In this document: one piece after another, positions 15,485 to 41,768 of the stretch
Position numbering within the stretch: the first letter of the stretch is position 1
How the letters are laid out: every line of letters starts with the position of its first letter
Assembly (NCBI GenBank): GCA_964458855.1
Contig: CAYWJS010000001.1
Coordinates: forward strand, 6,906 to 70,905
Direction: 5' to 3'
Length of the DNA: 64,000 bases
DNA from: an uncultured Erysipelotrichia bacterium
GTDB taxonomy: Bacteria > Bacillota_I > Bacilli_A > CAYWJS01
Position numbers and translations under genes: made by a program
The notes under the pieces: generated by a model
The model's database searches: none
What the model was told of the DNA's origin: nothing
What the model saw: only the letters and a program-made list of their open reading frames with translations

Positions 15485-15568
15485 TGGTGCGGGTGAAGGG
15501 ACTTGAACCCCCATGCCAAAGGCGCTAGATCCTAAGTCTAGTGCGTCTGCCAGTTCCGCCACACCCGC
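15485..15568 (-). tRNA. tRNA-Leu(TAG)
   Basis: 84-nt type-II tRNA, acceptor GCGGGUG/CACCCGC, anticodon loop cuUAGga, long variable arm, encoded CCA. Confidence 0.9.
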
Positions 15569-15575
15569 CTATCAA

Positions 15576-15652
<77 letters not shown>

Positions 15653-15659
15653 TTAAAAA

Positions 15660-15733
15660 TGGAGCGGCCGATGGGAATCGAACCCACACATTCAGCTTGG
15701 AAGGCTGAGGTTCTACCATTAAACTACGGCCGC
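15660..15733 (-). tRNA. tRNA-Gly(TCC)
   Basis: 74 nt, GCGGCCGUAGUUUAAUGGUAGAAC..., anticodon loop cuUCCaa, encoded CCA. Confidence 0.9.
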
Positions 15734-15841: not shown

Positions 15842-17269
15842 TTACTTTTTCCCCATTTTCTCTGTAATCCATCTTTTTGCTTCCTCAATATCATTAAATG
15901 CTATTTTTTCATCACCAATTTGTTGAGTATTTTCATTTCCCTTTCCTGTAATTAAAACAATATCATTCGGTTCTGCCATAAAAATTCCTTTTTTAATTGC
16001 CTCACTTCGATCAATAATGATTTCAAAATTATTTTTATCTTTAACCTCACTTATCATTTGATTAATAATATCTTCCGGACGTTCACTTTTTGGATCTTCA
16101 CTAGTAAATATTACCCAATCTGCTTTATTAGTTACCACCTCACCCATTATTGGCCGCTTTTCTTTATCACGTTCGCCAGCAGCGCCTAAAACAATGATAA
16201 TTCTGTTTTTGTTTTCAATTTTTTGGATAAAATCTAGTAAATTACTTAAAGCATTAGGAGTGTGCGCAAAATCAACAATTACAGTAAAATCTTGACCAAG
16301 TTCAATGCGTTCCATTCTTCCTTCTATTGTACCAATATTACTAATTAAAGGAATTATTTCATTTAAGTTGAACCCCAAAGCATAAATAGTAGAAATTGCT
16401 GCAAGTAAATTATAAACATTATAAATTCCAAGTAATTTGCTTGTTATTTTATAAGTTCCTTCCTTTGTTACTAACTTAAACTCAGTTTTGTTAGCAAATA
16501 ACTTAATATCTTGTGCCCAAAAATCACTTTTATTATTAATTCCATATGTCAAAACTTTTGCTTTTGTTACTTTCTTTAACTTATCAGTTACTTCTTCATC
16601 GCCATTTAAAATTGCATAACCTTTTGTATTTTCAAAAAGTTTTTTCTTAGCAGCAAAATAATTTTCCATTGTTTTGTGATAATCTAAATGTTCGTGAGAA
16701 AGATTGGTAAAAATAGATATTTCATATTCTAAATCAAAAACCCTTTTTTGATCAATTGCTTGTGAGCTTACTTCCATTACGCAATTATTAATATTATCTT
16801 GCACAAATTCATGAAAAATTTTATGAAGTTCAAGCGGTTCTGGTGTAGTATATCCATAATAGTCATGCTTATTTTTATAAAAAACACCATTTGTTCCAAT
16901 ATAACCAATATTTAAAATGTCTTTTAACATTTGATATATTATTGTTGCTGTCGTTGTTTTTCCGTCTGTACCAGTAATACCAATTAATTTTATTTTATCT
17001 TTTGGGTCGTTATAAAAACGACTTGCAATTTGGGCAAGAGCTTTTCTTGTATCAGAAACAACTATAACGGGAACAGAAACATCTAATGTGCGTTCACTTA
17101 TAATTGCAACTGCGCCGTTTTGAATTACCTCTTCTACTACATCATGATTGTCAAACTTTTGACCCTTGATACAAACAAACAAATCTCCTTTAGTAACCTT
17201 TCGCGAATCTGTTTTAATGCCCAAAATTTCAGTTTCATATTCACAGAAAATTAAATCCTTAAGAATCAT
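15842..17269 (-). CDS. murE: UDP-N-acetylmuramoyl-L-alanyl-D-glutamate--2,6-diaminopimelate (or L-lysine) ligase
   Basis: 475 aa, N-terminal DSRKV..GDLF..KG..DNHD, GITGTDGKTTT P-loop, Mur ligase three-domain layout. Confidence 0.85.
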   Translation of the reverse strand: MILKDLIFCEYETEILGIKTDSRKVTKGDLFVCIKGQKFDNHDVVEEVIQNGAVAIISERTLDVSVPVIVVSDTRKALAQIASRFYNDPKDKIKLIGITGTDGKTTTATIIYQMLKDILNIGYIGTNGVFYKNKHDYYGYTTPEPLELHKIFHEFVQDNINNCVMEVSSQAIDQKRVFDLEYEISIFTNLSHEHLDYHKTMENYFAAKKKLFENTKGYAILNGDEEVTDKLKKVTKAKVLTYGINNKSDFWAQDIKLFANKTEFKLVTKEGTYKITSKLLGIYNVYNLLAAISTIYALGFNLNEIIPLISNIGTIEGRMERIELGQDFTVIVDFAHTPNALSNLLDFIQKIENKNRIIIVLGAAGERDKEKRPIMGEVVTNKADWVIFTSEDPKSERPEDIINQMISEVKDKNNFEIIIDRSEAIKKGIFMAEPNDIVLITGKGNENTQQIGDEKIAFNDIEEAKRWITEKMGKK

Positions 17270-17284
17270 TTTTACACCACTTTC

Positions 17285-17899
17285 TTATAAGATTTTTCCA
17301 ATTAGACCTAGGAGAAGATAATGCACTGGATAATAAATATAAAATAATGGTTTTATTTTCTTCCCTTCTTTTCCATTATAAAAATAAATAAAAATTAAAC
17401 TTAAAAGTGAATAATATTGAATAGGATAAAAGAGTTTTAAAATATTTATAAAAATAAAGTTCAAGAATAGAAATGATAAACTTGTATAAAGAAAATTATT
17501 TCTTAATATGTAGAACAATAATATTAAAATAATACCATATAAAGGATAATCACAAATAATTGATAAATAAATTAAAAGCAATGTAATTATGTATTCTTTT
17601 TTTTCAAAAGATTTTAAAGCAAGAAGGGCAATTCCTAAAGTAAATAAAATATTAAGTGTTGTCTCTTTTAAAAATATAAAAAATAAAATTTGAGAGATTA
17701 CTCCTAAAACAAGTATTCTTGTTACATATTTAGGAAAACTTTTTGTGTGTTTATATCCTTCTACTATTAAGAATGCAAAAATAGGAAAAGCAATGCGCCC
17801 AATTATTCTAAAAATAGGGTTACCTGGAAAAATAAACATTCCAATATGATCTATTGTCATTGTAATTAGGGCAACGAGTTTCAATAAAAAACTAGTCAT
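17285..17899 (-). CDS. TraX-family membrane protein
   Basis: 204-aa polytopic protein; N-terminal LKLVALITMTIDHIG..F motif typical of TraX family. 15 nt upstream of murE, likely co-transcribed. Confidence 0.6.
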   Translation of the reverse strand: MTSFLLKLVALITMTIDHIGMFIFPGNPIFRIIGRIAFPIFAFLIVEGYKHTKSFPKYVTRILVLGVISQILFFIFLKETTLNILFTLGIALLALKSFEKKEYIITLLLIYLSIICDYPLYGIILILLFYILRNNFLYTSLSFLFLNFIFINILKLFYPIQYYSLLSLIFIYFYNGKEGKKIKPLFYIYYPVHYLLLGLIGKIL

Positions 17900-17990: not shown

Positions 17991-18066
17991 TGGTGACCCG
18001 TGCGGGAATCGAACCCGCGAATGCTAGCGTGAAAGGCTAGTGTGTTAACCGCTTCACCAACGGGCC
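17991..18066 (-). tRNA. tRNA-Glu(TTC)
   Basis: 76 nt, GGCCCGUUGGUGAAGCGGUUAACAC..., anticodon loop cuUUCac, encoded CCA. Confidence 0.9.
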
Positions 18067-18069
18067 GCG

Positions 18070-18146
18070 TGGCGCCCCCACAAGGACTCGAACCTTGGAC
18101 CCCATGATTAACAGTCATGTGCTCTAACCGACTGAGCTATGGAGGC
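18070..18146 (-). tRNA. tRNA-Asn(GTT)
   Basis: 77 nt, GCCUCCAUAGCUCAGUCGGUUAGAGC..., anticodon loop cuGUUaa, encoded CCA. Confidence 0.9.
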
Positions 18147-20398: not shown

Positions 20399-20428
20399 AT
20401 AAAAACTTGGCTTATGCCAAGTTATTTA
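20399..20428. terminator. terminator between lipoprotein gene and thioredoxin-like gene
   Basis: aacttggc-ttat-gccaagtt hairpin with flanking A/T runs. Confidence 0.6.
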
Positions 20429-21438
20429 CCACCAGTACTTTGAACTACAGTTAAGGAGTTTGCAACTGCTAAAATTTCTTCTTCATCACCATCTGGAAAT
20501 ACTAGATAAAACTCCATTCCGTTATCTATCCAAGTCGCTGATGTTTTTGTTAAAGCACCTATTGTCTCTCCAATAAAGACCGGATCACCATATACTGAAA
20601 TAAGTTCCATTTTATCATAAATGTCTGTTGTTTCTTCAATAAGAGTAAAGTTTTTATCACCTGCAAATGTCATAATTACTCGTTCACCATCAGTTTTGGT
20701 AACCCTATCTTCTTTTGCCAAATGTGTATTACTTGGAAGATACATTGGATACATTTTATCTTCAATTTTCTTTGCTACTGTAATTTCCTCTTTTAGGTTA
20801 CTTCTTGCTACATTCATATTATTTTCAACTGCAAAATAATTTTTTTCAAATTTAGCATCCATATCATTAGTTCTAAAGATTACTTTTATTTTTGGGCGCT
20901 CTTCACTATCTAAAACATGAACTTCTTTTAGATTTAGTTTTTTATCAAAATAAATAAGTTCTCTTTTTAAATCAGGATTATTTGGATAATCACCTTTAAC
21001 TGAAAAAATATAGTAACCATTATCTTCTTTAAAAGTTCTTTCTTTATCAGATAAAATATCATTTACAAGAGATTGATATAAATATACTTGAGAATTGTTA
21101 TATGGCCATTCACTTTGAAATTTAAATGTTTTGTTTAAAGAAGGTGTTAAAACATATACTCCGTCATTATTTTTTAAAATAATTTGTTCATGATTAGTTC
21201 TTTGATTTCTTAAACTTACACGAAACATATTTTGTTTTTGGTAAGAGACATTTAAATCATACTTATAAGTATCCTCGCCATTATAAATTTCTAAAATACC
21301 AATCATATTATATCCTTTTAAATTTTTACTTTTTCTCTCTAAGTCTTTTATAATACCTTCCGCTGTTTTTTTACCACAACCTACTAACAAAAACATAAAA
21401 AACATTGATACTACTAAAAACCATTTATTTTTCATCAA
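20422..21438 (-). CDS. putative lipoprotein, unknown function
   Basis: 338 aa. Signal peptide with lipobox LLVGC|GK, hydrophilic Tyr/Asn/Lys-rich mature part. Confidence 0.55.
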   Translation of the reverse strand: MMKNKWFLVVSMFFMFLLVGCGKKTAEGIIKDLERKSKNLKGYNMIGILEIYNGEDTYKYDLNVSYQKQNMFRVSLRNQRTNHEQIILKNNDGVYVLTPSLNKTFKFQSEWPYNNSQVYLYQSLVNDILSDKERTFKEDNGYYIFSVKGDYPNNPDLKRELIYFDKKLNLKEVHVLDSEERPKIKVIFRTNDMDAKFEKNYFAVENNMNVARSNLKEEITVAKKIEDKMYPMYLPSNTHLAKEDRVTKTDGERVIMTFAGDKNFTLIEETTDIYDKMELISVYGDPVFIGETIGALTKTSATWIDNGMEFYLVFPDGDEEEILAVANSLTVVQSTGGK

Positions 21439-22134: not shown

Positions 22135-23331
22135 TTAAAACTTTACTGGTTTACTTCCTTTTGAACCCTTTATTCCTTTTGTACCATTAAAGTTTTCTAA
22201 AATATTCGCTTCATATGAAAATAAAAGTTTTGTCCTTCTTTTTTCGCGAGCAATAGCAAGTTTTATTAACTCATCTAATAAGTCAACAAAATCTTTTCCT
22301 GATGCATCCCACAAATAGAATGATAAAGAACCAGGAATTGTATTTATTTCATTAACATAAATATCATTTGTTTCCTTATTAATTAGAAAATCAATTCTTG
22401 AGACACCACTTGCAAAAAGAGCTCTAAATGTTTGTTTAGCTAGTTCTTGAATCTTTTCGGTTGTCTTTTCATCTAATTTTGCTGGAATAATTCTTGCTGC
22501 GCCTGCCATACCACTTATACCTTTTTTACCGCCACCTTGGTATTTATCTTCATAACTTAAAATATCATCACTTTTTATTACTTCTTCTAAAACACTTACT
22601 TGTTGATTAGTGTAATCTCCTAAAACACTACAATTTACTTCCATTAGGTTAGAAATAACTTCCTCAACAAGAATTCTTTCATCAAGAACTGATGCAGTCT
22701 CAACGGCAGCAATAAATTCTTTTTCATCATTTGCAATTGTTATTCCAACACTACTTCCAAGAGTAGCAGGTTTTATAATAACTGGATATTGTAATTTTGC
22801 AACTTCTTTTAAAATTTTTTCTTTATTAGTTTCAAATTCACTTGCATAAAACCAAATGTATTTATTCACAGGAAGGTTATTTGCTTTTAAAATATCTTTC
22901 ATAAAAATTTTGTCTTGTCCAACTGCTGCTGCTTTTACTTCACAACCTACATAAGGTACACCAATTGTTTCAAGGTATCCTTGTAGTGTTCCATCTTCTC
23001 CAAATGTTCCATGCATTACAGGAAGTACAACATCAATTACTGTTAAAACTCTTTTAAAACCACTATTTTTTTGTAAAACAATACGACCATTTTTATTTCT
23101 TACTAAATCTACTCTTGTTGCAAATTGCTTAATTGCATCTAAATTCTTAAAGTTTTTAATATTTGTTAGTAAATCTCCTGTGTACCATTCTCCAGACTTT
23201 GCAATATAAATGGGTACTATCTCATATTTTGCTGAGTCTAAAACTCGCATTACTTGTTGTGCTGAAATAATACTAATTTCATGTTCAACACTTTTTCCTC
23301 CAAAAATAACTGCTACTGATATTTTCATCAT
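22135..23331 (-). CDS. ddl: D-alanine--D-alanine ligase
   Basis: 398 aa, N-terminal VAVIFGGKSVEHEISIIS, ATP-grasp; Gly/Lys-rich C-terminal tail. Confidence 0.9.
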   Translation of the reverse strand: MMKISVAVIFGGKSVEHEISIISAQQVMRVLDSAKYEIVPIYIAKSGEWYTGDLLTNIKNFKNLDAIKQFATRVDLVRNKNGRIVLQKNSGFKRVLTVIDVVLPVMHGTFGEDGTLQGYLETIGVPYVGCEVKAAAVGQDKIFMKDILKANNLPVNKYIWFYASEFETNKEKILKEVAKLQYPVIIKPATLGSSVGITIANDEKEFIAAVETASVLDERILVEEVISNLMEVNCSVLGDYTNQQVSVLEEVIKSDDILSYEDKYQGGGKKGISGMAGAARIIPAKLDEKTTEKIQELAKQTFRALFASGVSRIDFLINKETNDIYVNEINTIPGSLSFYLWDASGKDFVDLLDELIKLAIAREKRRTKLLFSYEANILENFNGTKGIKGSKGSKPVKF

Positions 23332-23346
23332 AATATTAACTCCTCC

Positions 23347-24972
23347 CTACTCATTATAATTATCAGGTAAATCATTTTCTATCAGTACATAAGTTTTATT
23401 ATCTTTAATATTTTCTAGATGATTAAATGCATCTCTTAAATCATTTGTTACATATATTTTTTTCTTATCATAACCTACTTCAATTAAACCTTCATAAATA
23501 GGTTTTGTTTGTTTTTTTCCTACCAAAATTGCATAATCACAAACTTTACTAATTTCATATCCTAATTCTTTATTTAACTTTTCCTCTTCTGGTCCAAGTT
23601 CAATCATTCCAGGTGTAATTATTACCTTTTTCCCTGGCATAAGGCTTAATACTTCAAGAGCTGCTTTCGCTCCCTCTGGATTTGAATTAAAGGAATCATC
23701 AATATAAATAATATCATTTTTTATTTTTAATTCCAAGCGATGTGGAACTGGTTTTATATTTTTTGCTCCTTTTATTAAATTGTCATTGTTAATACCTAAG
23801 GCACGAGCAAGAGTAAGACTTGCTAAATTGTTATAAACGTTATGCCTTCCCAATAATTTTGTTTGAATTTTAAGTGGCTTCTTTTCCCCTTTGAAATAAA
23901 CATCAAAACTCATTCCTTCATGACTATAAACAACATTTGTAGCATAAGTATCAGCATTTTTATTATTCATTGAATACCACAATACTTTACATTTATTTTT
24001 TAATTTATAACTTGTTTGTAATTCATCATCCATATTTAATACTGCAATCCCGTCTTCTGGAAGTGCTTCAATAAGTTCAAATTTAGTTTTTTGGATATTT
24101 TTAATTGAACCAAAATACTCAAGATGAGCAGGACCTATTTTTGTTAAAATTCCATATTTAGGTTTTACAAATCTAGTTAATTCTTTGATTTCTCCTGGTT
24201 TATAAGCCCCCATCTCAGCAATAAAAATATCATGAAGAGCACTTAACTCTTTCCTTATTGTAATTGTTAAACCTAACTTTGTATTAATACTGCGCGGAGT
24301 TGCTAAAGAGTTATACTTAGTAAGTAATATTTCATTTAAAAAATTTTTGGTACTAGTTTTTCCATAACTTCCAGTAATACCTACAACTTCCAAGCGCATA
24401 AGTGATCTAATCTTTCTTTTCGCATCATTTATATAATAAAAGTTAATTGATTTTTCTAATGGAAGATTAATAATGGTTCCTAAAATTACAATCAAATATG
24501 AAAGATAAGAAATACTTATAATTGTTAGGAAAAATGTTAAATCATCACCAAATCTAATGCTTAAAAAGATTGCTACTATAATTAACAAACTTATTGTTGT
24601 AATTAATCTTTTAATTTTCGGGGTATAAACTAATGGTTTTTTCTCAAATGTTTTTTTCCAAGTCTTAAATAAAAATAAATAAACACCAAATATTAAAATT
24701 AAGCATAAATAGAAAATTTCACTAAAATCCCTAACATAAAAAGTCCTAATAAAAAGTAGTAAAACTAATTCAAAAGTTAAAAAAACTTCTTTAAAATTTC
24801 TTTTTAACCACTTAAAATAGCGTAGAAATCCGTATTGATTTAACTGAAAAATGTGAATACTCTTTTTTAGTTTTTCAACTAAATACATAAAAAAAGGAAT
24901 TAAAGCACCAATAAATATTATTCTTCCTAATATCCAACTAAAACCCTCTGCTAACAAATTTAATCCATCCAT
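23347..24972 (-). CDS. murF: UDP-N-acetylmuramoyl-tripeptide--D-alanyl-D-alanine ligase with N-terminal multi-TM domain
   Basis: 541 aa. Residues ~185-541 have MurF central/C-terminal domains (VVGITGSYGKTSTK, IDDSFNSNPEGA). Residues 1-~180 are 5-6 hydrophobic helices instead of the MurF N-terminal domain. Confidence 0.8.
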   Translation of the reverse strand: MDGLNLLAEGFSWILGRIIFIGALIPFFMYLVEKLKKSIHIFQLNQYGFLRYFKWLKRNFKEVFLTFELVLLLFIRTFYVRDFSEIFYLCLILIFGVYLFLFKTWKKTFEKKPLVYTPKIKRLITTISLLIIVAIFLSIRFGDDLTFFLTIISISYLSYLIVILGTIINLPLEKSINFYYINDAKRKIRSLMRLEVVGITGSYGKTSTKNFLNEILLTKYNSLATPRSINTKLGLTITIRKELSALHDIFIAEMGAYKPGEIKELTRFVKPKYGILTKIGPAHLEYFGSIKNIQKTKFELIEALPEDGIAVLNMDDELQTSYKLKNKCKVLWYSMNNKNADTYATNVVYSHEGMSFDVYFKGEKKPLKIQTKLLGRHNVYNNLASLTLARALGINNDNLIKGAKNIKPVPHRLELKIKNDIIYIDDSFNSNPEGAKAALEVLSLMPGKKVIITPGMIELGPEEEKLNKELGYEISKVCDYAILVGKKQTKPIYEGLIEVGYDKKKIYVTNDLRDAFNHLENIKDNKTYVLIENDLPDNYNE

Positions 24973-25787: not shown

Positions 25788-26840
25788 CTAAAGAAGTGGG
25801 ACACTTTTTGTTAAATTGCGAGGATTATCAATTTCTGTGTTGCGTGCTAAAGCTGTATAGTAAGCAATTAATTGTCCTAAAACAACAGTTACAAAAGAAG
25901 TAAAAAGAAAATGAACTTGAGGTATTATAATATTATCTTTGCTCTCGCTTATATCTTCTAAAGAGATAATAACAACTTTACCTTCTTTATTTGAAATTTC
26001 TTTTATTGCATTCCTTACAACTTTACTGCTTTCTTTTAAAGTGTTAAGTATTATAACGCTTGTTCCTTCCTCAAGCAAAGTAATAGGTCCATGAAAAAAT
26101 TCTTTGATAGGGAGTGCAAATGCTGGAATATAAGCAGTCTCTTTCAATTTCAAACTAATTTCAAGTGTAGCATAAAAGTCAAAACTAGTACCAAGCAAAA
26201 ATATTAATTTATTATCTTTTAAGGAATTAGCTATATTTTGATAAACTGCTTTTTTATTATATAAATTTTGAACTGTACTAGCAACCTTTAAAAGTTCTTC
26301 TTTAATATTAATTGGTTGCCCACTTATTGAATTTGCAAGAATGCTTAGTAAAGCAAGTGTTGCAATAAAACTTTTTGTTGCAGGAATTGAAACCTCTTTA
26401 CCTGCTTCTAAAAAAAGAGAATAATCAGCATTTTTACTTAAATACGAATCTGGAGTATTTGTAATAGTTAGAGTTTTATATCCTAAATCTTTGATTTTTG
26501 ATAAAGCTTCTTTTAAATCACCGGTTTCTCCACTTTGACTAATAATTAAAAAGAAAGAGTTTTCATCAATAAGTGGCATATTATAAACAAATTCGCTTGC
26601 AATAATACTTTCAGCTTTCTTTCTCGCTAATTTTTCAAATAAACTTTTTCCAATTAATCCAGCATGATAAGAAGAGCCAGATGCAATTATATAAATTGTA
26701 TTTGCATTCTTTAATGCATTAAGTATTTCTTTATCAATAAAATAAGTATCTTTTCCAATATATTTTTTTATTATTCTTTTAATAATTTTAGGTTGCTCAC
26801 TTATTTCTTTTAGCATATAATGTTGATACTCGTCCTTCAT
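25788..26840 (-). CDS. tandem-SIS-domain sugar-phosphate isomerase/deaminase (GlmS isomerase-half-like; AgaS/GlmD type)
   Basis: 350 aa with two SIS modules (IYIIASGSSYHAG..., FLLGTSFDFYATLE...); no glutaminase domain. Confidence 0.6.
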   Translation of the reverse strand: MKDEYQHYMLKEISEQPKIIKRIIKKYIGKDTYFIDKEILNALKNANTIYIIASGSSYHAGLIGKSLFEKLARKKAESIIASEFVYNMPLIDENSFFLIISQSGETGDLKEALSKIKDLGYKTLTITNTPDSYLSKNADYSLFLEAGKEVSIPATKSFIATLALLSILANSISGQPINIKEELLKVASTVQNLYNKKAVYQNIANSLKDNKLIFLLGTSFDFYATLEISLKLKETAYIPAFALPIKEFFHGPITLLEEGTSVIILNTLKESSKVVRNAIKEISNKEGKVVIISLEDISESKDNIIIPQVHFLFTSFVTVVLGQLIAYYTALARNTEIDNPRNLTKSVPLL

Positions 26841-32705: not shown

Positions 32706-33050
32706 TGGTGGAGGCGGTGGGATTCGAACCCACGTCCAAAAATAGAAAATACATAAACATCTACAAGTTTAGTTAGTTGAATAATTTAACTACTTAGTAA
32801 GCCAACTAACAAGCATCTAAGTAGCGAGTCTAGTAAAAATTTTGTTACTAGTTCCTAGACAAAACTAGTAACTATCCCACATTCATGAACCTTTTATATT
32901 CCAGGTGGGAGCCAGAATATAGAAGGCCTACCGCTTAGCTTAAGCAGTAGCTAATGCAAATTCGTTTCCGATTATTTTTCGGATGCGTTTTACGTACGCC
33001 TACGACTTGCAGTTTATGCTCTCGTATTCCCGTCGAAGCCAATCGCCCCC
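32706..33050 (-). ncRNA. ssrA: transfer-messenger RNA (tmRNA, ssrA)
   Basis: 5' GGGGGCGAUUGGCUUCGACGGG (G3:U70 acceptor) and 3' GUGGGUUCGAAUCCCACCGCCUCCACCA T-arm/CCA. Internal reading frame ...GGA AAC GAA UUU GCA UUA GCU ACU GCU UAA. Confidence 0.85.
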
Positions 33051-36740: not shown

Positions 36741-36770
36741 TAAAAAAGAACACGTTTGTTCTTTTTTATT
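36741..36770. terminator. terminator after MurD-like gene (aagaaca-cgttt-tgttctt + T-run)
   Basis: Hairpin between MurD-like gene and P-type ATPase gene. Confidence 0.65.
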
Positions 36771-38151
36771 TTGAGCTATATTTTTTAATTAATTCTTTAT
36801 AATGGTCGCCACGCTCCATAAAGTTTTTATAAAAATCATAACTTGCAGCAGCAGGTGACATTACACAAGCAGTATTTTTAGGTGTTACTTCATATGCTAG
36901 TTTTACTGCTTCTTCAAGACTTTTTACTTGATAAATTTTAATATTTGGATGAATCTTTCCTTTTAAGAGTTTATATACCCTTTCCCCAACATTTAGAAGA
37001 CAAATAATATTATCAACTACATGTTCTTGAAAATATGGAATAAATTTATCATAAGAAATTCCTTTATCATAACCACCAATAATAATTGTACCTACGTTTT
37101 TAACTGCATTTATTGCATTCATAGCACTTTCAGGAATTGTAGAAATAGAATCATTAAAAAACGTTATATTATTAAATGTCCCCACATTTTCCAAGCGATG
37201 AGGAAGTCCAGGAAATTCTTTTATTACATTAAGTGCTTTTCTTAAATCATTAATACCAATAATTTTTAAAATACATAGTATACGAGCAATGTTTTCAAGA
37301 TTAAAATCACCTAGAATCTTTCTTTCAAGATTTGTTTTAGCAATAACTTCTCTTTTTCCTTTATCAACAAAAATAATATCTTCACCCTCAATAAAAATTC
37401 CTCGTTCTGTACCCTTAATTCCGTATGTATATAAGTTTGAGATAACATTTTCGTTTAAAATCTTTTTTGAATTTTCATCATTTGAAATAAGGAGATAATC
37501 ATTTTTAGTTTGATAGCGATAAATATTCTTTTTCGCATTATGATAAGCTTCAATTGTACCGTGGTATTCTAAATGATCTTCATGAAGATTAACAATTAAA
37601 GCTATATGGGGTGAACGTGTTACTTGATCTAGTTGGTGTGATGAAAGTTCAAAAACATATAATCTTTTGCCATCATCACTATTTATTGAATCAAAAGCAG
37701 GTATACCAATATTACCAACAAGTTCAACATCTTGATATTCATTAATAGTAAGTTTAAGAAGAGTGCTTATGGTACTTTTTCCTTTTGTTCCTGTAACGCC
37801 AATAACTCTATCGGCAAATAAATCCAAAAACACCTTTGCTTGATTTACTATCTCTGCATTCGGAAAATATGGGCTTATCTTTCGATAATTTATACCAGGA
37901 GCTACAAAAACATAATTGTACTTTTCTTTTCCATCATCTAAATAATTTTCTCCGCTATAAATTGTAATATTTTCTTCTTTTTTGTCTTCAAAAAAGTTCT
38001 TTGCTACCTCTTCTTTTATTTCAAAAATTGCAATATGCTTATCTGGAAAATGACTTCGTAAAAAATTATATGTTGATTTACCTTCTAATCCAAAACCAAC
38101 AATTGCAATATTTTTATTTGCTATTTGTTCTAAATACTCATTTAGAGTCAT
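36766..38151 (-). CDS. Mur ligase family protein, MurD-like
   Basis: 461 aa. N-terminal Rossmann-like IAIVGFGLEGKST, P-loop GVTGTKGKSTIST, ELSSHQLD, C-terminal Mur ligase domain. Start overlaps the upstream PP-loop gene by 14 nt. Confidence 0.8.
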   Translation of the reverse strand: MTLNEYLEQIANKNIAIVGFGLEGKSTYNFLRSHFPDKHIAIFEIKEEVAKNFFEDKKEENITIYSGENYLDDGKEKYNYVFVAPGINYRKISPYFPNAEIVNQAKVFLDLFADRVIGVTGTKGKSTISTLLKLTINEYQDVELVGNIGIPAFDSINSDDGKRLYVFELSSHQLDQVTRSPHIALIVNLHEDHLEYHGTIEAYHNAKKNIYRYQTKNDYLLISNDENSKKILNENVISNLYTYGIKGTERGIFIEGEDIIFVDKGKREVIAKTNLERKILGDFNLENIARILCILKIIGINDLRKALNVIKEFPGLPHRLENVGTFNNITFFNDSISTIPESAMNAINAVKNVGTIIIGGYDKGISYDKFIPYFQEHVVDNIICLLNVGERVYKLLKGKIHPNIKIYQVKSLEEAVKLAYEVTPKNTACVMSPAAASYDFYKNFMERGDHYKELIKKYSSK

Positions 38152-39493
38152 TTTTAATCATCCTTTCAAATTCTAATGGCAAAAGATTTTCTTTATTATA
38201 ATAAGTAAGGGGATTTGTATGTATTTTTTCATTTGGATACTTTTCTAAATAATATTTAAGTAAAGCAGGGAACTTTTTTTCTTTTTTTCTTAATAAATCT
38301 AAAGCATATTTTACTTCTTCAATTGTTCCAACACATTCAAATGGTTTAATGCTTGTCTCTCCAATTAATTTTTTAAAGATTGGAAGAAGATTCTCATCAT
38401 CTAGTAAATCCTTACCAAATATTTGAATGAGTTCAGAATGTTCAAGGAATGGTGCAAGAATAATATAAACAAATAAGCATTTTGGACAAGTACAGCACCA
38501 AATGTTTTCTTTGCTTCCACGATTACAACTTCTAAATGCAGAGAAATATTTTTTATGTTTAGAAAATTCATAAGCAATTTTAATTTCCTTCCAAGGACGT
38601 AAGAAACTAAAATAGTTTATGTTATTTGTAATATATTTATGGACATAATTGTTAAAATCTTTTTCAAATTCAAAACTTTTTGAATATTGGTGATTTATGT
38701 TTGTTCCTAAAATAGTTGGTTCATTTGCACTTGCTTCATTAGATAAAACAATATATTTTTTTCCCTTTAAAGCAGCAGTTAAAATAGAAATAAAAGCAAA
38801 TCCTGCTGAAAGTGGAATATGACCATTTAAGAACCCTTCTTCATTTAATTTAAGTAAGGTAGGATCAAGATATCTTTTTATTAAAATTCTGTCTTCTTCA
38901 TTGTAACCTGCAATATGAACTGAGTCTTTTGCTGCTATAGTTGGATTTATTAAAAGAACATTATTTTCTTTTTTCTTTTCTTTTAAAAGTTCTAAAGTTA
39001 CTATTGAGTCTTTCCCACCACCAACAGGAATAATATTTCCATTTACTAATAAATTGTTATTTACTTGAAATTTCTTATTACCTATTGATTCAATCTTAAT
39101 AAACTCTTCTTCTTTTATGAAATCATATAGTTTATTTAGATAAAGCATTTCCCCTAAACCTTTATAATATAATTTTTGCCACCAATTTATTTGTTCTTCA
39201 TCTAAATTATTAGGCATTACTAAAAAAAATTTACTACATGTAAGTTTCCAATAACTAATTGCTTCAATCATTCCTAAGTTAAAAACAATATTTTGAATAA
39301 CTTCAGAATCTAAGTTACTTTTTAAAGTAAAGTTTTTATAAATTGTAAGTCTATGATTAAAAGGAATGATTTCTTCTCCGTTTAATTCATACTGATAAGT
39401 TATTTCAATAGACTCTTCTTTTTCTTCAATTTTGAAATCACGATAAATAAATTTTGGATATTTTTTATTTAAATTTTCATAAATCTTTAACAT
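38138..39493 (-). CDS. PP-loop ATP pyrophosphatase superfamily protein of unknown function (candidate adenylating epimerase/amidotransferase acting with the MurD-like ligase)
   Basis: 451 aa. PP-loop IIPVGGGKDSIVTL (SGGxDS-type) at ~aa 155-165, Cys cluster WCCTCPKC near aa 325, no N-terminal glutaminase domain. Confidence 0.55.
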   Translation of the reverse strand: MLKIYENLNKKYPKFIYRDFKIEEKEESIEITYQYELNGEEIIPFNHRLTIYKNFTLKSNLDSEVIQNIVFNLGMIEAISYWKLTCSKFFLVMPNNLDEEQINWWQKLYYKGLGEMLYLNKLYDFIKEEEFIKIESIGNKKFQVNNNLLVNGNIIPVGGGKDSIVTLELLKEKKKENNVLLINPTIAAKDSVHIAGYNEEDRILIKRYLDPTLLKLNEEGFLNGHIPLSAGFAFISILTAALKGKKYIVLSNEASANEPTILGTNINHQYSKSFEFEKDFNNYVHKYITNNINYFSFLRPWKEIKIAYEFSKHKKYFSAFRSCNRGSKENIWCCTCPKCLFVYIILAPFLEHSELIQIFGKDLLDDENLLPIFKKLIGETSIKPFECVGTIEEVKYALDLLRKKEKKFPALLKYYLEKYPNEKIHTNPLTYYNKENLLPLEFERMIKNDSK

Positions 39494-39520: not shown

Positions 39521-40066
39521 TTATACTGTCATTATTTCTTTTTCTTTTTTAAGAGTTTCTTCATCAATAATTTTATTGTACTTATCTGTTAAGTCTTGAA
39601 TTTTTTTCATTGCTGTTTTTTCTTCATCTTCTGTTAAGCTAAGTTTCTTTATTTGATCATTTGCATCTCTTCTTATATTTCTAATTGCAATTTTTCCTTC
39701 TTCTGCAAGTCTTTTAACATCCTTTACAAATTCAAGTCTTCTCTCCTCAGTTAAAGGTGGGATGTTAATTCTAATTACTTCACCAATATTTGTTGGAGTA
39801 AATCCTAAATTAGCATCAATTATTGCTTTTAAAACATCATCAATAATACTAATGTCATATGGTTTCACTAATATTTGTCTTGCTTCTGGAATTGAAATTG
39901 AACATAATTGCCGAATTGGTGTTTCAACACCATAATAAGGCACTTTTACCTTGTCTAAAATTGTAGGATTTGCGCGCCCTGTTCTAATATTTAAAAACTC
40001 TTCTAACATAACATTAACTGCTTTTTCCATTCTTTCTGTAGCATTTTTAAAAATATCTTCAACCAT
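39521..40066 (-). CDS. frr: ribosome recycling factor
   Basis: 181 aa, RRF-like sequence. Confidence 0.9.
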   Translation of the reverse strand: MVEDIFKNATERMEKAVNVMLEEFLNIRTGRANPTILDKVKVPYYGVETPIRQLCSISIPEARQILVKPYDISIIDDVLKAIIDANLGFTPTNIGEVIRINIPPLTEERRLEFVKDVKRLAEEGKIAIRNIRRDANDQIKKLSLTEDEEKTAMKKIQDLTDKYNKIIDEETLKKEKEIMTV

Positions 40067-40078
40067 TTTTATTACCTC

Positions 40079-40528
40079 CTATTTATTTATTTTTTTATTT
40101 ATTTTTTCAAGATACCTTTTAGTATCTCTTTCTTTCAAAGTTTGACGTTTATCATAACTTTTTTTCCCGCGAGCAACACCAATTAATACTTTGGCACGTC
40201 CATGTTTAAAATATATTTTTAAAGGTATTAAAGTATAACCCTGATTTGAAAGAGCGCGTTCTAAACGTAAGATTTCGTTTTTATTAAGTAAGAGTTTTCT
40301 AGTTCTGAGTGGTTCATGATTAAAACGACCTCCTTCTTCATATGGTGCGATATAAACATTTAACAAAAACACTTCATGATTCTTAATATACGCATAAGCA
40401 TCTTTCAAATCAACTGAACCTTTTCTAATTGATTTTATTTCTGTTCCTTTCAAAACAATTCCCGCTTCATATGTATCTTCAATAAAATAATCGTGATATG
40501 CTTTTCGATTATTTATTTCTATTTCCAT
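40079..40528 (-). CDS. smpB: SsrA-binding protein SmpB
   Basis: 149 aa, [29 protein letters not shown]. Confidence 0.95.
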
Positions 40529-40532
40529 TATA

Positions 40533-41768
40533 TCACCTTACTATTTCTAAATCTTCAACATATTTTGTTAAAATTTTCTCATATTTTTCTCGGTAGTGAT
40601 TCATATCTAAATTTTGATCAGAATAATTACAAAGATTTGGATAAGCTGGAACATTGTTAGGACTAGAATTTTTTAATAATTCATTAGTCATTTTAGAAAA
40701 TGGAATAATTTTATAATTTTTTCGATTATTATCAGAGTTTTGATAAAATAACATTGCTCTTGGGCTTAGTAGTTCTATTTCAGTATTATTATCAACAACT
40801 TTTTTCTTAATATCAAGTCCCACTAATACTCCTACCCTTCGGTCAATACATCCTTGGGCAGCAATAAAGTTACCAAGCGAGTATGCAACAAAAGTTTTTC
40901 TTCCATCTTCTCGCTCAATAAATTCTACAGGTTGAACAACATGAGGATGATGACCAATAATAATATCAACACCTAAATCAGCAAGAAATTTAGCATGCTT
41001 ACGTTGCTTACTACTTTCATTAAAAGCATATTCATTTCCCCAGTGCATTGATACAATGATAATATCAACTTTATCTTTAACTTTTTCAATATCAGATGTA
41101 ATCTTATCATAATCTACTAATGATATGTAATGTTCCTTTCCAATTGGAACTGGAATATCATTAGTACTTTCGGTATAAGCAAAGAAAGCATATTTAATAC
41201 CATTCATTTCATAAATTGCTGGTTCTTGTGCCTCTTTTGATGGGAAAGATCCTGCATAAATTGCGCCACTATTTTCCCAATATTTTAAAGAATTTTCAAC
41301 ACCTTTTGTACTTGCATCTAGTGTATGGTTATTTGCAAGAGAAACTAAATTAACACCCAAATCAAGTAAGGCATCACCAATTTCATAAGGACTGTTAAAT
41401 GTTGGATAACTACGAACTCCTAACTCTTGTCCACCAATTGGAGATTCCTGATTTACAAAACGCAAATCATATGATAAAAAATAATCTTTTATTTCACTAA
41501 ATATTGATCGAAAATCATAACGCATAATACCTTTTTCATCAGGACCAATTTGAGCATCTAGGTAGATAGCACCATGAATCAAAACATCTCCAGCCATAAC
41601 TAAACTAAGTTCGTACTCTTCTGTTTTAGGTTCATTTACTACTGGTGGTTTAGTATTATTATCTTTTTTAAATGAAAAATCTAAAAAGTTAAATATAACT
41701 GTAATAACTATTGCAACCAATAAAAATATTGTAATTTTCCCTCTAAGTTTCATTTTCCTTTTTGTCAT
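40533..41768 (-). CDS. CapA-family (PGA_cap) metallophosphoesterase-like protein, membrane anchored
   Basis: 411 aa, N-terminal [11 protein letters not shown] and GHHPHVVQP motifs. Confidence 0.65.

Follow-up and report, generated by a model that had tools for sequence, protein, structure and literature searches.

A putative MurL and its linked MurD-type ligase in an uncultured Erysipelotrichia bacterium

An alternative route to the D-glutamate (D-Glu) of peptidoglycan was discovered in Xanthomonas oryzae, where L-glutamate (L-Glu) is attached and then flipped to D-Glu by MurL (PMC8788868, PMC5808125). The ligase of this route is MurD2 (EC 6.3.2.53) and the epimerase is MurL (EC 5.1.1.23). 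The published biochemistry covers the Xanthomonas pair and the K319T substitution (PMC8788868, PMC5808125). MurL activity has been published only for enzymes of Xanthomonas, Micromonospora and Salinispora (PMC8788868). As published, the route occurs in Xanthomonadales, in a small number of Alphaproteobacteria and in rare actinobacteria; weak homologues are reported from cyanobacteria, a fungus and an amoeba (PMC8788868, PMC5808125). Here a pair of overlapping open reading frames (ORFs) encoding a 451-amino acid (aa) MurL-like protein and a 461-aa MurD-family ligase is described from an uncultured Erysipelotrichia bacterium (assembly GCA_964458855.1). The pair lies in a 64-kb stretch of contig CAYWJS010000001.1, positions 6,906 to 70,905, which is called the window below.

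The pair probably constitutes a working L-Glu ligase and epimerase route which supplies D-Glu for peptidoglycan without free D-Glu. This reading is based on the homology of both proteins, the predicted fold, conserved motifs, the linkage and fusion of the genes and the clade to which the ligase belongs; substrate chirality and epimerase activity are predictions. The two-enzyme system is already known, and the pair is a member of it from a new phylum, not a system of a new kind. The family is already labelled in databases, as Pfam MurL_N and MurL_epimerase_C and in JGI product names. A search of the literature gave no paper on a Firmicute or Bacteroidota MurL or on the MurL fold. New here are the wider distribution, the predicted QueC-like PP-loop/Cys4 assignment, the replacement of Lys319 by Ile as a marker in common with proven MurD2, and the Asp/Lys combination of the window ligase, which is unusual.

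The 451-aa protein and its predicted fold

The 451-aa protein had a single NCBIfam match, to the Xanthomonadales MurL model NF041275 (E 7.2e-80, 268.6 bits), with aa 15-417 aligned to positions 10-410 of the 447 in the model. Precomputed Pfam matches label its two halves MurL_N and MurL_epimerase_C. A local Pfam scan, in a copy without the MurL models, returned only a weak match to DUF6395. By BLASTP the protein was 34% identical to the MurL of X. sacchari (E 3e-59), which is also 451 aa long and homologous over the whole length. Fifty-seven columns were invariant across 48 Firmicute and Bacteroidota homologues and 49 of these were identical in X. sacchari MurL. The conserved set includes GGGKDS, H225, N252-E253, NHQxSK, R299, five Cys and KPFECVG. 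One of the Cys, C387, is proposed as a candidate catalytic residue only. Judged by its sequence, the 451-aa protein is homologous to MurL over its full length. The X. sacchari murL-murD pair was obtained by tblastn of a plasmid collection, and its record, titled 'plasmid unnamed' and 508 kb long, appears to be a piece of a chromosome.

An AlphaFold model of the 451-aa protein was built on alignment A2 and had a mean predicted local distance difference test score (pLDDT) of 94.2 and a predicted template modelling score (pTM) of 0.92. No solved MurL structure was matched in a sequence search of the PDB. The model has the Rossmann-like alpha/beta fold of N-type ATP pyrophosphatases. It resembles QueC, LarE, NadE, TtuA, ThiI and TilS, with QueC the closest. 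In a profile search of PDB sequences GGGKDS was aligned with the SGGKDS PP-loop of TtuA PH0300 (E 0.005); GGGKDS is a variant of SGGxDS with Gly in place of the first Ser. The predicted fold is that of the PP-loop ATP pyrophosphatase superfamily. A first-pass annotation, made from the letters of the window alone, had claimed a PP-loop nucleotide-binding motif, IIPVGGGKDS, and the fold matches and the TtuA alignment bear this out. It had placed the protein with no housekeeping PP-loop enzyme, which also holds, QueC being only 16% identical. QueC, TilS, NadE, ThiI and TtuA were rejected as identities for the protein because they match it in fold alone, at 7-18% identity, and differ in architecture. 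Compared with QueC and the QueC-like Cap9 (16-18% identity), an additional N-terminal domain (approximately aa 1-135) and C-terminal helices are present in MurL.

The Cys cluster of MurL is invariant in its spacing, C323-x9-C333-x2-C336-x2-C339, and includes WCCTCPKC at aa 332-339. The zinc site of QueC reportedly has the spacing C-x8-C-x2-C-x2-C. By this near match the four Cys of MurL probably form a metal site. The PP-loop reading of MurL fits the published use of ATP with release of AMP.

QueC adenylates a carboxylate and then amidates it. As QueC is the closest fold, the 451-aa protein could perform a different adenylation-based change of the ligase product with QueC-like chemistry, such as conversion of the Glu alpha-carboxylate to an amide, giving isoglutamine. 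This is very improbable. The 49 residues named above are common to Xanthomonas MurL, a proven epimerase (PMC8788868), and the architecture is the same across the whole family including Xanthomonas. The locus carries neither a glutaminase nor an ammonia-delivering partner. The first-pass annotation had offered amidation as a secondary suggestion, for which no specific support was found. The predicted MurL activity differs from that of QueC and the other PP-loop enzymes in substrate, which is UDP-muramyl dipeptide, and in outcome, which is epimerisation and not an amide or nitrile.

Linkage of murL to the ligase gene

GTDB relatives of the 451-aa protein were at most 48% identical to it. A MurD-type ligase gene was immediately downstream of murL in 18/18 GTDB loci. 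These were from Lachnospiraceae, Oscillospiraceae, Erysipelotrichaceae, Bulleidia, Galactobacillus, Ruminococcus, Clostridium, Mobilitalea, uncultured Bacilli and Chitinophagales. The same order was present in two long contigs (L020 and L021), in a Bacteroidales metagenome-assembled genome (MAG) and in X. sacchari, where murL overlaps the ligase gene by 20 nucleotides (nt). Counted over independent MurL loci, the ligase was directly downstream in all 20, and the pairing is not due to chance. Stop and start codons overlapped by 4-14 nt in 14 of 19 separately encoded pairs. This tally had 20 rows; in L016 both proteins are encoded by one fused ORF, and the contig of L019 is that of the window. 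The fused ORF, MurL-MurD, is from a Chitinophagales MAG (L016:3178-5901, plus strand).

When 1.84 billion representatives were searched exhaustively with a profile, 3,599 clusters (50% identity) were obtained at E <= 1e-3 and 1,636 at E <= 1e-30. Among the best 150 MurL family representatives 40 were 740-1250 aa in length; the long fusion representatives include P0245, P0253, P0259, P0365 and P0387. Eight long proteins were scanned. The arrangements were MurL-MurD, MurD-MurL, MurL-MurD-M20 peptidase, MurC-like ligase-MurL and MurB-MurL. Fusion with MurD, MurB and MurC-like proteins connects the MurL family with the UDP-muramyl-peptide steps that take place in the cytoplasm. PLSDB contains many whole chromosomes that are mislabelled as plasmids and carry a Lys319 MurD; as a negative control, these gave no MurL match. 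Co-occurrence of the two families across genomes, on which the first-pass annotation had made its proposal depend, was thus found both in the 20 loci and as fusions.

It is hardly credible that the adjacency is incidental and that the role of the 451-aa protein is unrelated to the cell wall. Pseudonocardia plasmids, which carry a MurL-like gene without an adjoining ligase, are in its favor. Against it are the retention of the pair at every independent locus and the fusions with Mur proteins, and it is effectively refuted by this synteny and these fusions.

The Pseudonocardia genes are on mobilizable plasmids, pPaSha1 of Pseudonocardia alni (L029:4764-6164) and two others. The MurL-like protein scored 323 bits on NF041275 and kept 42 of the 57 invariant residues. 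Its gene adjoins a WD40-repeat gene and has no Mur ligase beside it. It may be a paralogue with another substrate.

In the window the minus-strand order is rnr, a PGA_cap-family gene, smpB, frr, murL, the ligase gene and then a P-type cation ATPase (Table 1). A Shine-Dalgarno-like AGGGGG is located 8 nt ahead of the MurL ATG. No convincing terminator was found between frr, murL and the ligase gene; the sole terminator-like match was a weak 5-bp stem just upstream of the 451-aa start. Identical copies of both genes were found on several metagenome contigs. The two ORFs, their 14-nt overlap, their position after frr and smpB and every motif quoted in the first-pass annotation were confirmed, and the strand, which it had left unstated, is minus. 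The annotation had also pointed out that the ligase gene is detached from any dcw cluster. This is true but uninformative, and it was rejected as evidence because murE, ddl and murF are also scattered in the window.

Ligase type and choice of glutamate enantiomer

The ligase contains the Mur_ligase_M and Mur_ligase_C domains and scores 292 bits on TIGR01087 (cutoff 212). Its motifs are IAIVGFGLEGKST (aa 15-27), GVTGTKGKST (aa 118-127) and ELSSHQLD (aa 168-175). The best PDB sequence match was 3LK7, the MurD of Streptococcus agalactiae (E 3e-47). X. sacchari MurD2 scores 298 bits on TIGR01087 and this model therefore cannot tell MurD from MurD2. The RefSeq name of X. sacchari MurD2 (L028:6136-7572), 'UDP-N-acetylmuramoyl-L-alanine--D-glutamate ligase', is due to the same score on this equivalog model.

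The ligase was compared with ten canonical MurDs (EC 6.3.2.9), those of E. coli and nine others. Six were in a dcw-type context. The set includes E. coli, Acetoanaerobium, two Bacillus, S. aureus, Paenibacillus, Parabacteroides, Leptospira and Neisseria. Residue positions follow the mature-protein numbering of E. coli MurD, the sequence of which was verified against the PDB. With canonical MurD (E. coli and S. agalactiae 3LK7) the window ligase shares the fold family, the P-loop and the equivalents of Asp182, Thr321, Lys348, Ser415 and Phe422. It differs in the loss of Lys319 (DSKATN), in its coupling to murL and in the lack of a dcw context. With Xanthomonas MurD2 it shares the MurD architecture, a gene placed right after murL, Ile for Lys319 (NDSIST) and an aromatic residue at the E. 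coli L416 position. It differs from MurD2 in having Asp192 and Lys363 as the equivalents of Glu197 and Arg358, and Ala as the equivalent of Pro433.

K319T is reported as the one change which lets E. coli MurD accept L-Glu (PMC8788868). Loss of Lys319 was derived as a marker in the present analysis, prompted by that published result. The position is Ile or Leu in 20/20 MurL-linked ligases and in 120/120 nearest homologues, and Ile in X. sacchari MurD2 (NDSISTTP). It is Lys in 10/10 canonical MurDs (DSK[AGS]TN). The window ligase has Ile336 at this position. It therefore has a functionally relevant derived state in common with a proven MurD2.

Ile at the Lys319 position is also found in two MurDs from Oscillospiraceae, those of Pusillibacter faecalis (L030:4001-5377, NDSIASSP) and Subdoligranulum variabile (L031:3989-5383, NDSIATSP). 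Both have Asn182, Lys348 and Phe416, have no MurL within 4 kb and fall outside the MurL-linked clade. Either murL is elsewhere in these genomes or they represent a third type of MurD.

A neighbor-joining tree was constructed from 431 columns with 200 bootstraps. The MurL-linked ligases of Firmicutes and Bacteroidota, including the window ligase, formed one clade (99.5% bootstrap) separate from the canonical Firmicute MurDs of Bacillus, Staphylococcus, Paenibacillus and Acetoanaerobium. The window ligase belongs with the MurL-linked ligases and not with canonical MurD, as the proposal of the first-pass annotation implied. The MurD2/MurL-type route, its first choice, is supported by the full-length MurL homologue, the co-occurrence and this clade, and is limited by Asp192 and Lys363.

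These two residues bring in another explanation. The ligase may use D-Glu or both enantiomers, with D-Glu fed by a glutamate racemase encoded elsewhere and MurL acting as a corrector. Asp192 and Lys363 are the canonical states of both published switch residues (PMC8788868), and the double mutation E197D/R358K turns X. oryzae MurD2 into a D-Glu ligase (PMC8788868). The ligase exceeds the TIGR01087 cutoff, although this model does not discriminate. Streptococcus mutans MurD reportedly accepts a little L-Glu. Against this are Ile336, which Xanthomonas MurD2 also has and none of the canonical MurDs compared has, and the position of the ligase within the MurL-linked clade. Tight coupling and frequent fusion also fit obligatory consecutive steps better than occasional repair. 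Use of D-Glu or of both enantiomers, with MurL as a corrector, is considered unlikely.

The states at both switch positions were scored across the related ligases. At the D182 position 14/20 MurL-linked ligases have Glu and 6/20 have Asp. Asp is present in 78/120 nearest homologues, Glu in X. sacchari MurD2, and canonical MurDs vary (D, A, T). At the K348 position Arg is present in 19/20 MurL-linked ligases, in 119/120 nearest homologues and in X. sacchari MurD2, and canonical MurDs have K or R.

Several points weigh against a working L-Glu ligase and epimerase. Among approximately 140 related ligases Lys363 is unique to the window ligase, and both switch positions are in the canonical state in it. 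This Asp/Lys state is the main uncertainty for its use of L-Glu. X. sacchari MurD2 is the sister of the MurL-linked clade with only 42.5% bootstrap, and overall identity of the window ligase to it is 23%. The 451-aa protein, at 268.6 bits, is far under the NF041275 equivalog cutoff of 700, which X. sacchari MurL exceeds (836.5 bits). The model was built on Xanthomonadales and takes its name from them, and a score under the cutoff is expected for another phylum; it weakens strict equivalog status and not homology. No assayed enzyme from the Firmicute/Bacteroidota clade was found in the literature searched. The annotated ORFs of the window include no glutamate racemase (murI), D-aminotransferase family member or second murD, and the window says little of the whole genome.

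On the L-Glu reading, the MurL homologue would bind ATP at GGGKDS, adenylate the alpha-carboxylate of the terminal L-Glu and release pyrophosphate, as suggested by homology to the Xanthomonas enzyme. The activated Glu would then lose its alpha-proton, either directly or via a 5(4H)-oxazolone formed with the carbonyl of the preceding Ala; the oxazolone is our own suggestion. The QueC-like Cys4 site is probably occupied by zinc and probably gives the substrate pocket its shape. The overlapping frames may keep ligase and MurL in fixed proportion. The D-Glu product would next be taken by MurE, which is encoded elsewhere in the window.

Other features of the window and wider meaning

The window has a G+C content of 26-35% and also encodes Spo0A, CdaA and WhiA. 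Among named relatives the Spo0A is closest to those of 'Bacilli bacterium' MAGs (63-65% identity), in keeping with an uncultured member of the Bacillota as the source. A PGA_cap gene (CapA-like, poly-gamma-glutamate capsule family; 40533..41768, minus strand) has rnr on one side and smpB on the other and is two genes upstream of murL. Its tie to glutamate chemistry may be a coincidence. The murF-like ORF has approximately 120 extra N-terminal residues.

Table 1. Positions of the murL-ligase locus, its motifs and other features of the window
Feature	Position	Strand	Remarks
MurL homologue (putative)	38138..39493	minus	451 aa, ATG start
PP-loop GGGKDS (aa 158-163)	39005..39022	minus	predicted ATP pyrophosphate-binding loop; invariant in 48/48 homologues
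Cys cluster SCN...WCxxCxxC (C323, C333, C336, C339)	38477..38530	minus	predicted structural metal (Zn) site, QueC type
KPFECVG with fifth invariant Cys C387	38327..38341	minus	in 48/48 homologues and in Xanthomonas and Pseudonocardia homologues
MurD-family ligase	36766..38151	minus	461 aa, ATG start; MurL-linked (MurD2-type) clade
murL stop/ligase start overlap	38138..38151	minus	14 nt, ATGACTCTAAATGA; translational coupling
GAAAGGA	38161..38167	minus	Shine-Dalgarno-like, 9 nt ahead of ligase ATG
NDSISTIP	37132..37155	minus	Ile336 at E. coli K319 position (canonical DSKATN)
HEDH	37573..37584	minus	Asp192 = E. coli D182 = X. oryzae MurD2 E197; chirality switch residue, canonical state
GGYDKG	37060..37077	minus	Lys363 = E. 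coli K348 = X. oryzae MurD2 R358; second switch residue, canonical state
frr	39521..40066	minus	directly upstream of murL
smpB	40079..40528	minus	upstream of frr
tRNA genes	15488..15733 and 17994..18146
murE	15842..17269		scattered from other mur genes
TraX/TrbP-like acyltransferase homologue	17285..17899	minus	adjoins murE; under family cutoff
GerS-like germination lipoprotein	20422..21438	minus	weak match, 38.8 bits (cutoff 175)
ddl	22135..23331		directly follows murF-like ORF
murF-like ORF	23347..24972	minus	541 aa; TIGR01143 over aa 188-531 only, 247 bits (cutoff 288.6)
GlmS-like protein	25788..26840	minus	350 aa; C-terminal SIS half only (model 247-598), without glutaminase domain; downstream of cdaA-ybbR
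tmRNA gene	32706..33050	minus	Rfam, 191 bits; ~7 kb downstream of smpB, same strand

MurD2/MurL has been viewed as confined to a few genera and thus as a narrow-spectrum drug target against Xanthomonas and Stenotrophomonas (PMC8788868). Contrary to this, the MurL family is large and includes many Bacillota and Bacteroidota. MurL was always found with its ligase in Lachnospiraceae, Oscillospiraceae, Erysipelotrichaceae, Ruminococcus, Clostridium, uncultured Bacilli, Bacteroidales and Chitinophagales. An inhibitor of the MurD2/MurL route would therefore also hit many commensals.

A broader proposal is put forward tentatively, at a little under even confidence. MurD2/MurL, far from being a peculiarity of a few proteobacterial and actinobacterial genera, would be a major D-Glu route in large and mostly uncultured groups of gut and environmental Bacillota and Bacteroidota, with MurL a QueC-like PP-loop enzyme with a Cys4 metal site. 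Specificity for L-Glu would come mainly from the loss of Lys319 and not from the published Glu/Arg pair, so that the Asp/Lys variant would still use L-Glu.

The mislabelling seen in X. sacchari MurD2 applies equally to the MurL-linked ligases in MAGs. The predicted QueC-like PP-loop and Cys4 assignment would give a structural basis for the adenylation mechanism of MurL. The Lys319-to-Ile marker and the natural Asp/Lys variant are simple mutagenesis targets for the choice of glutamate enantiomer by MurD enzymes.

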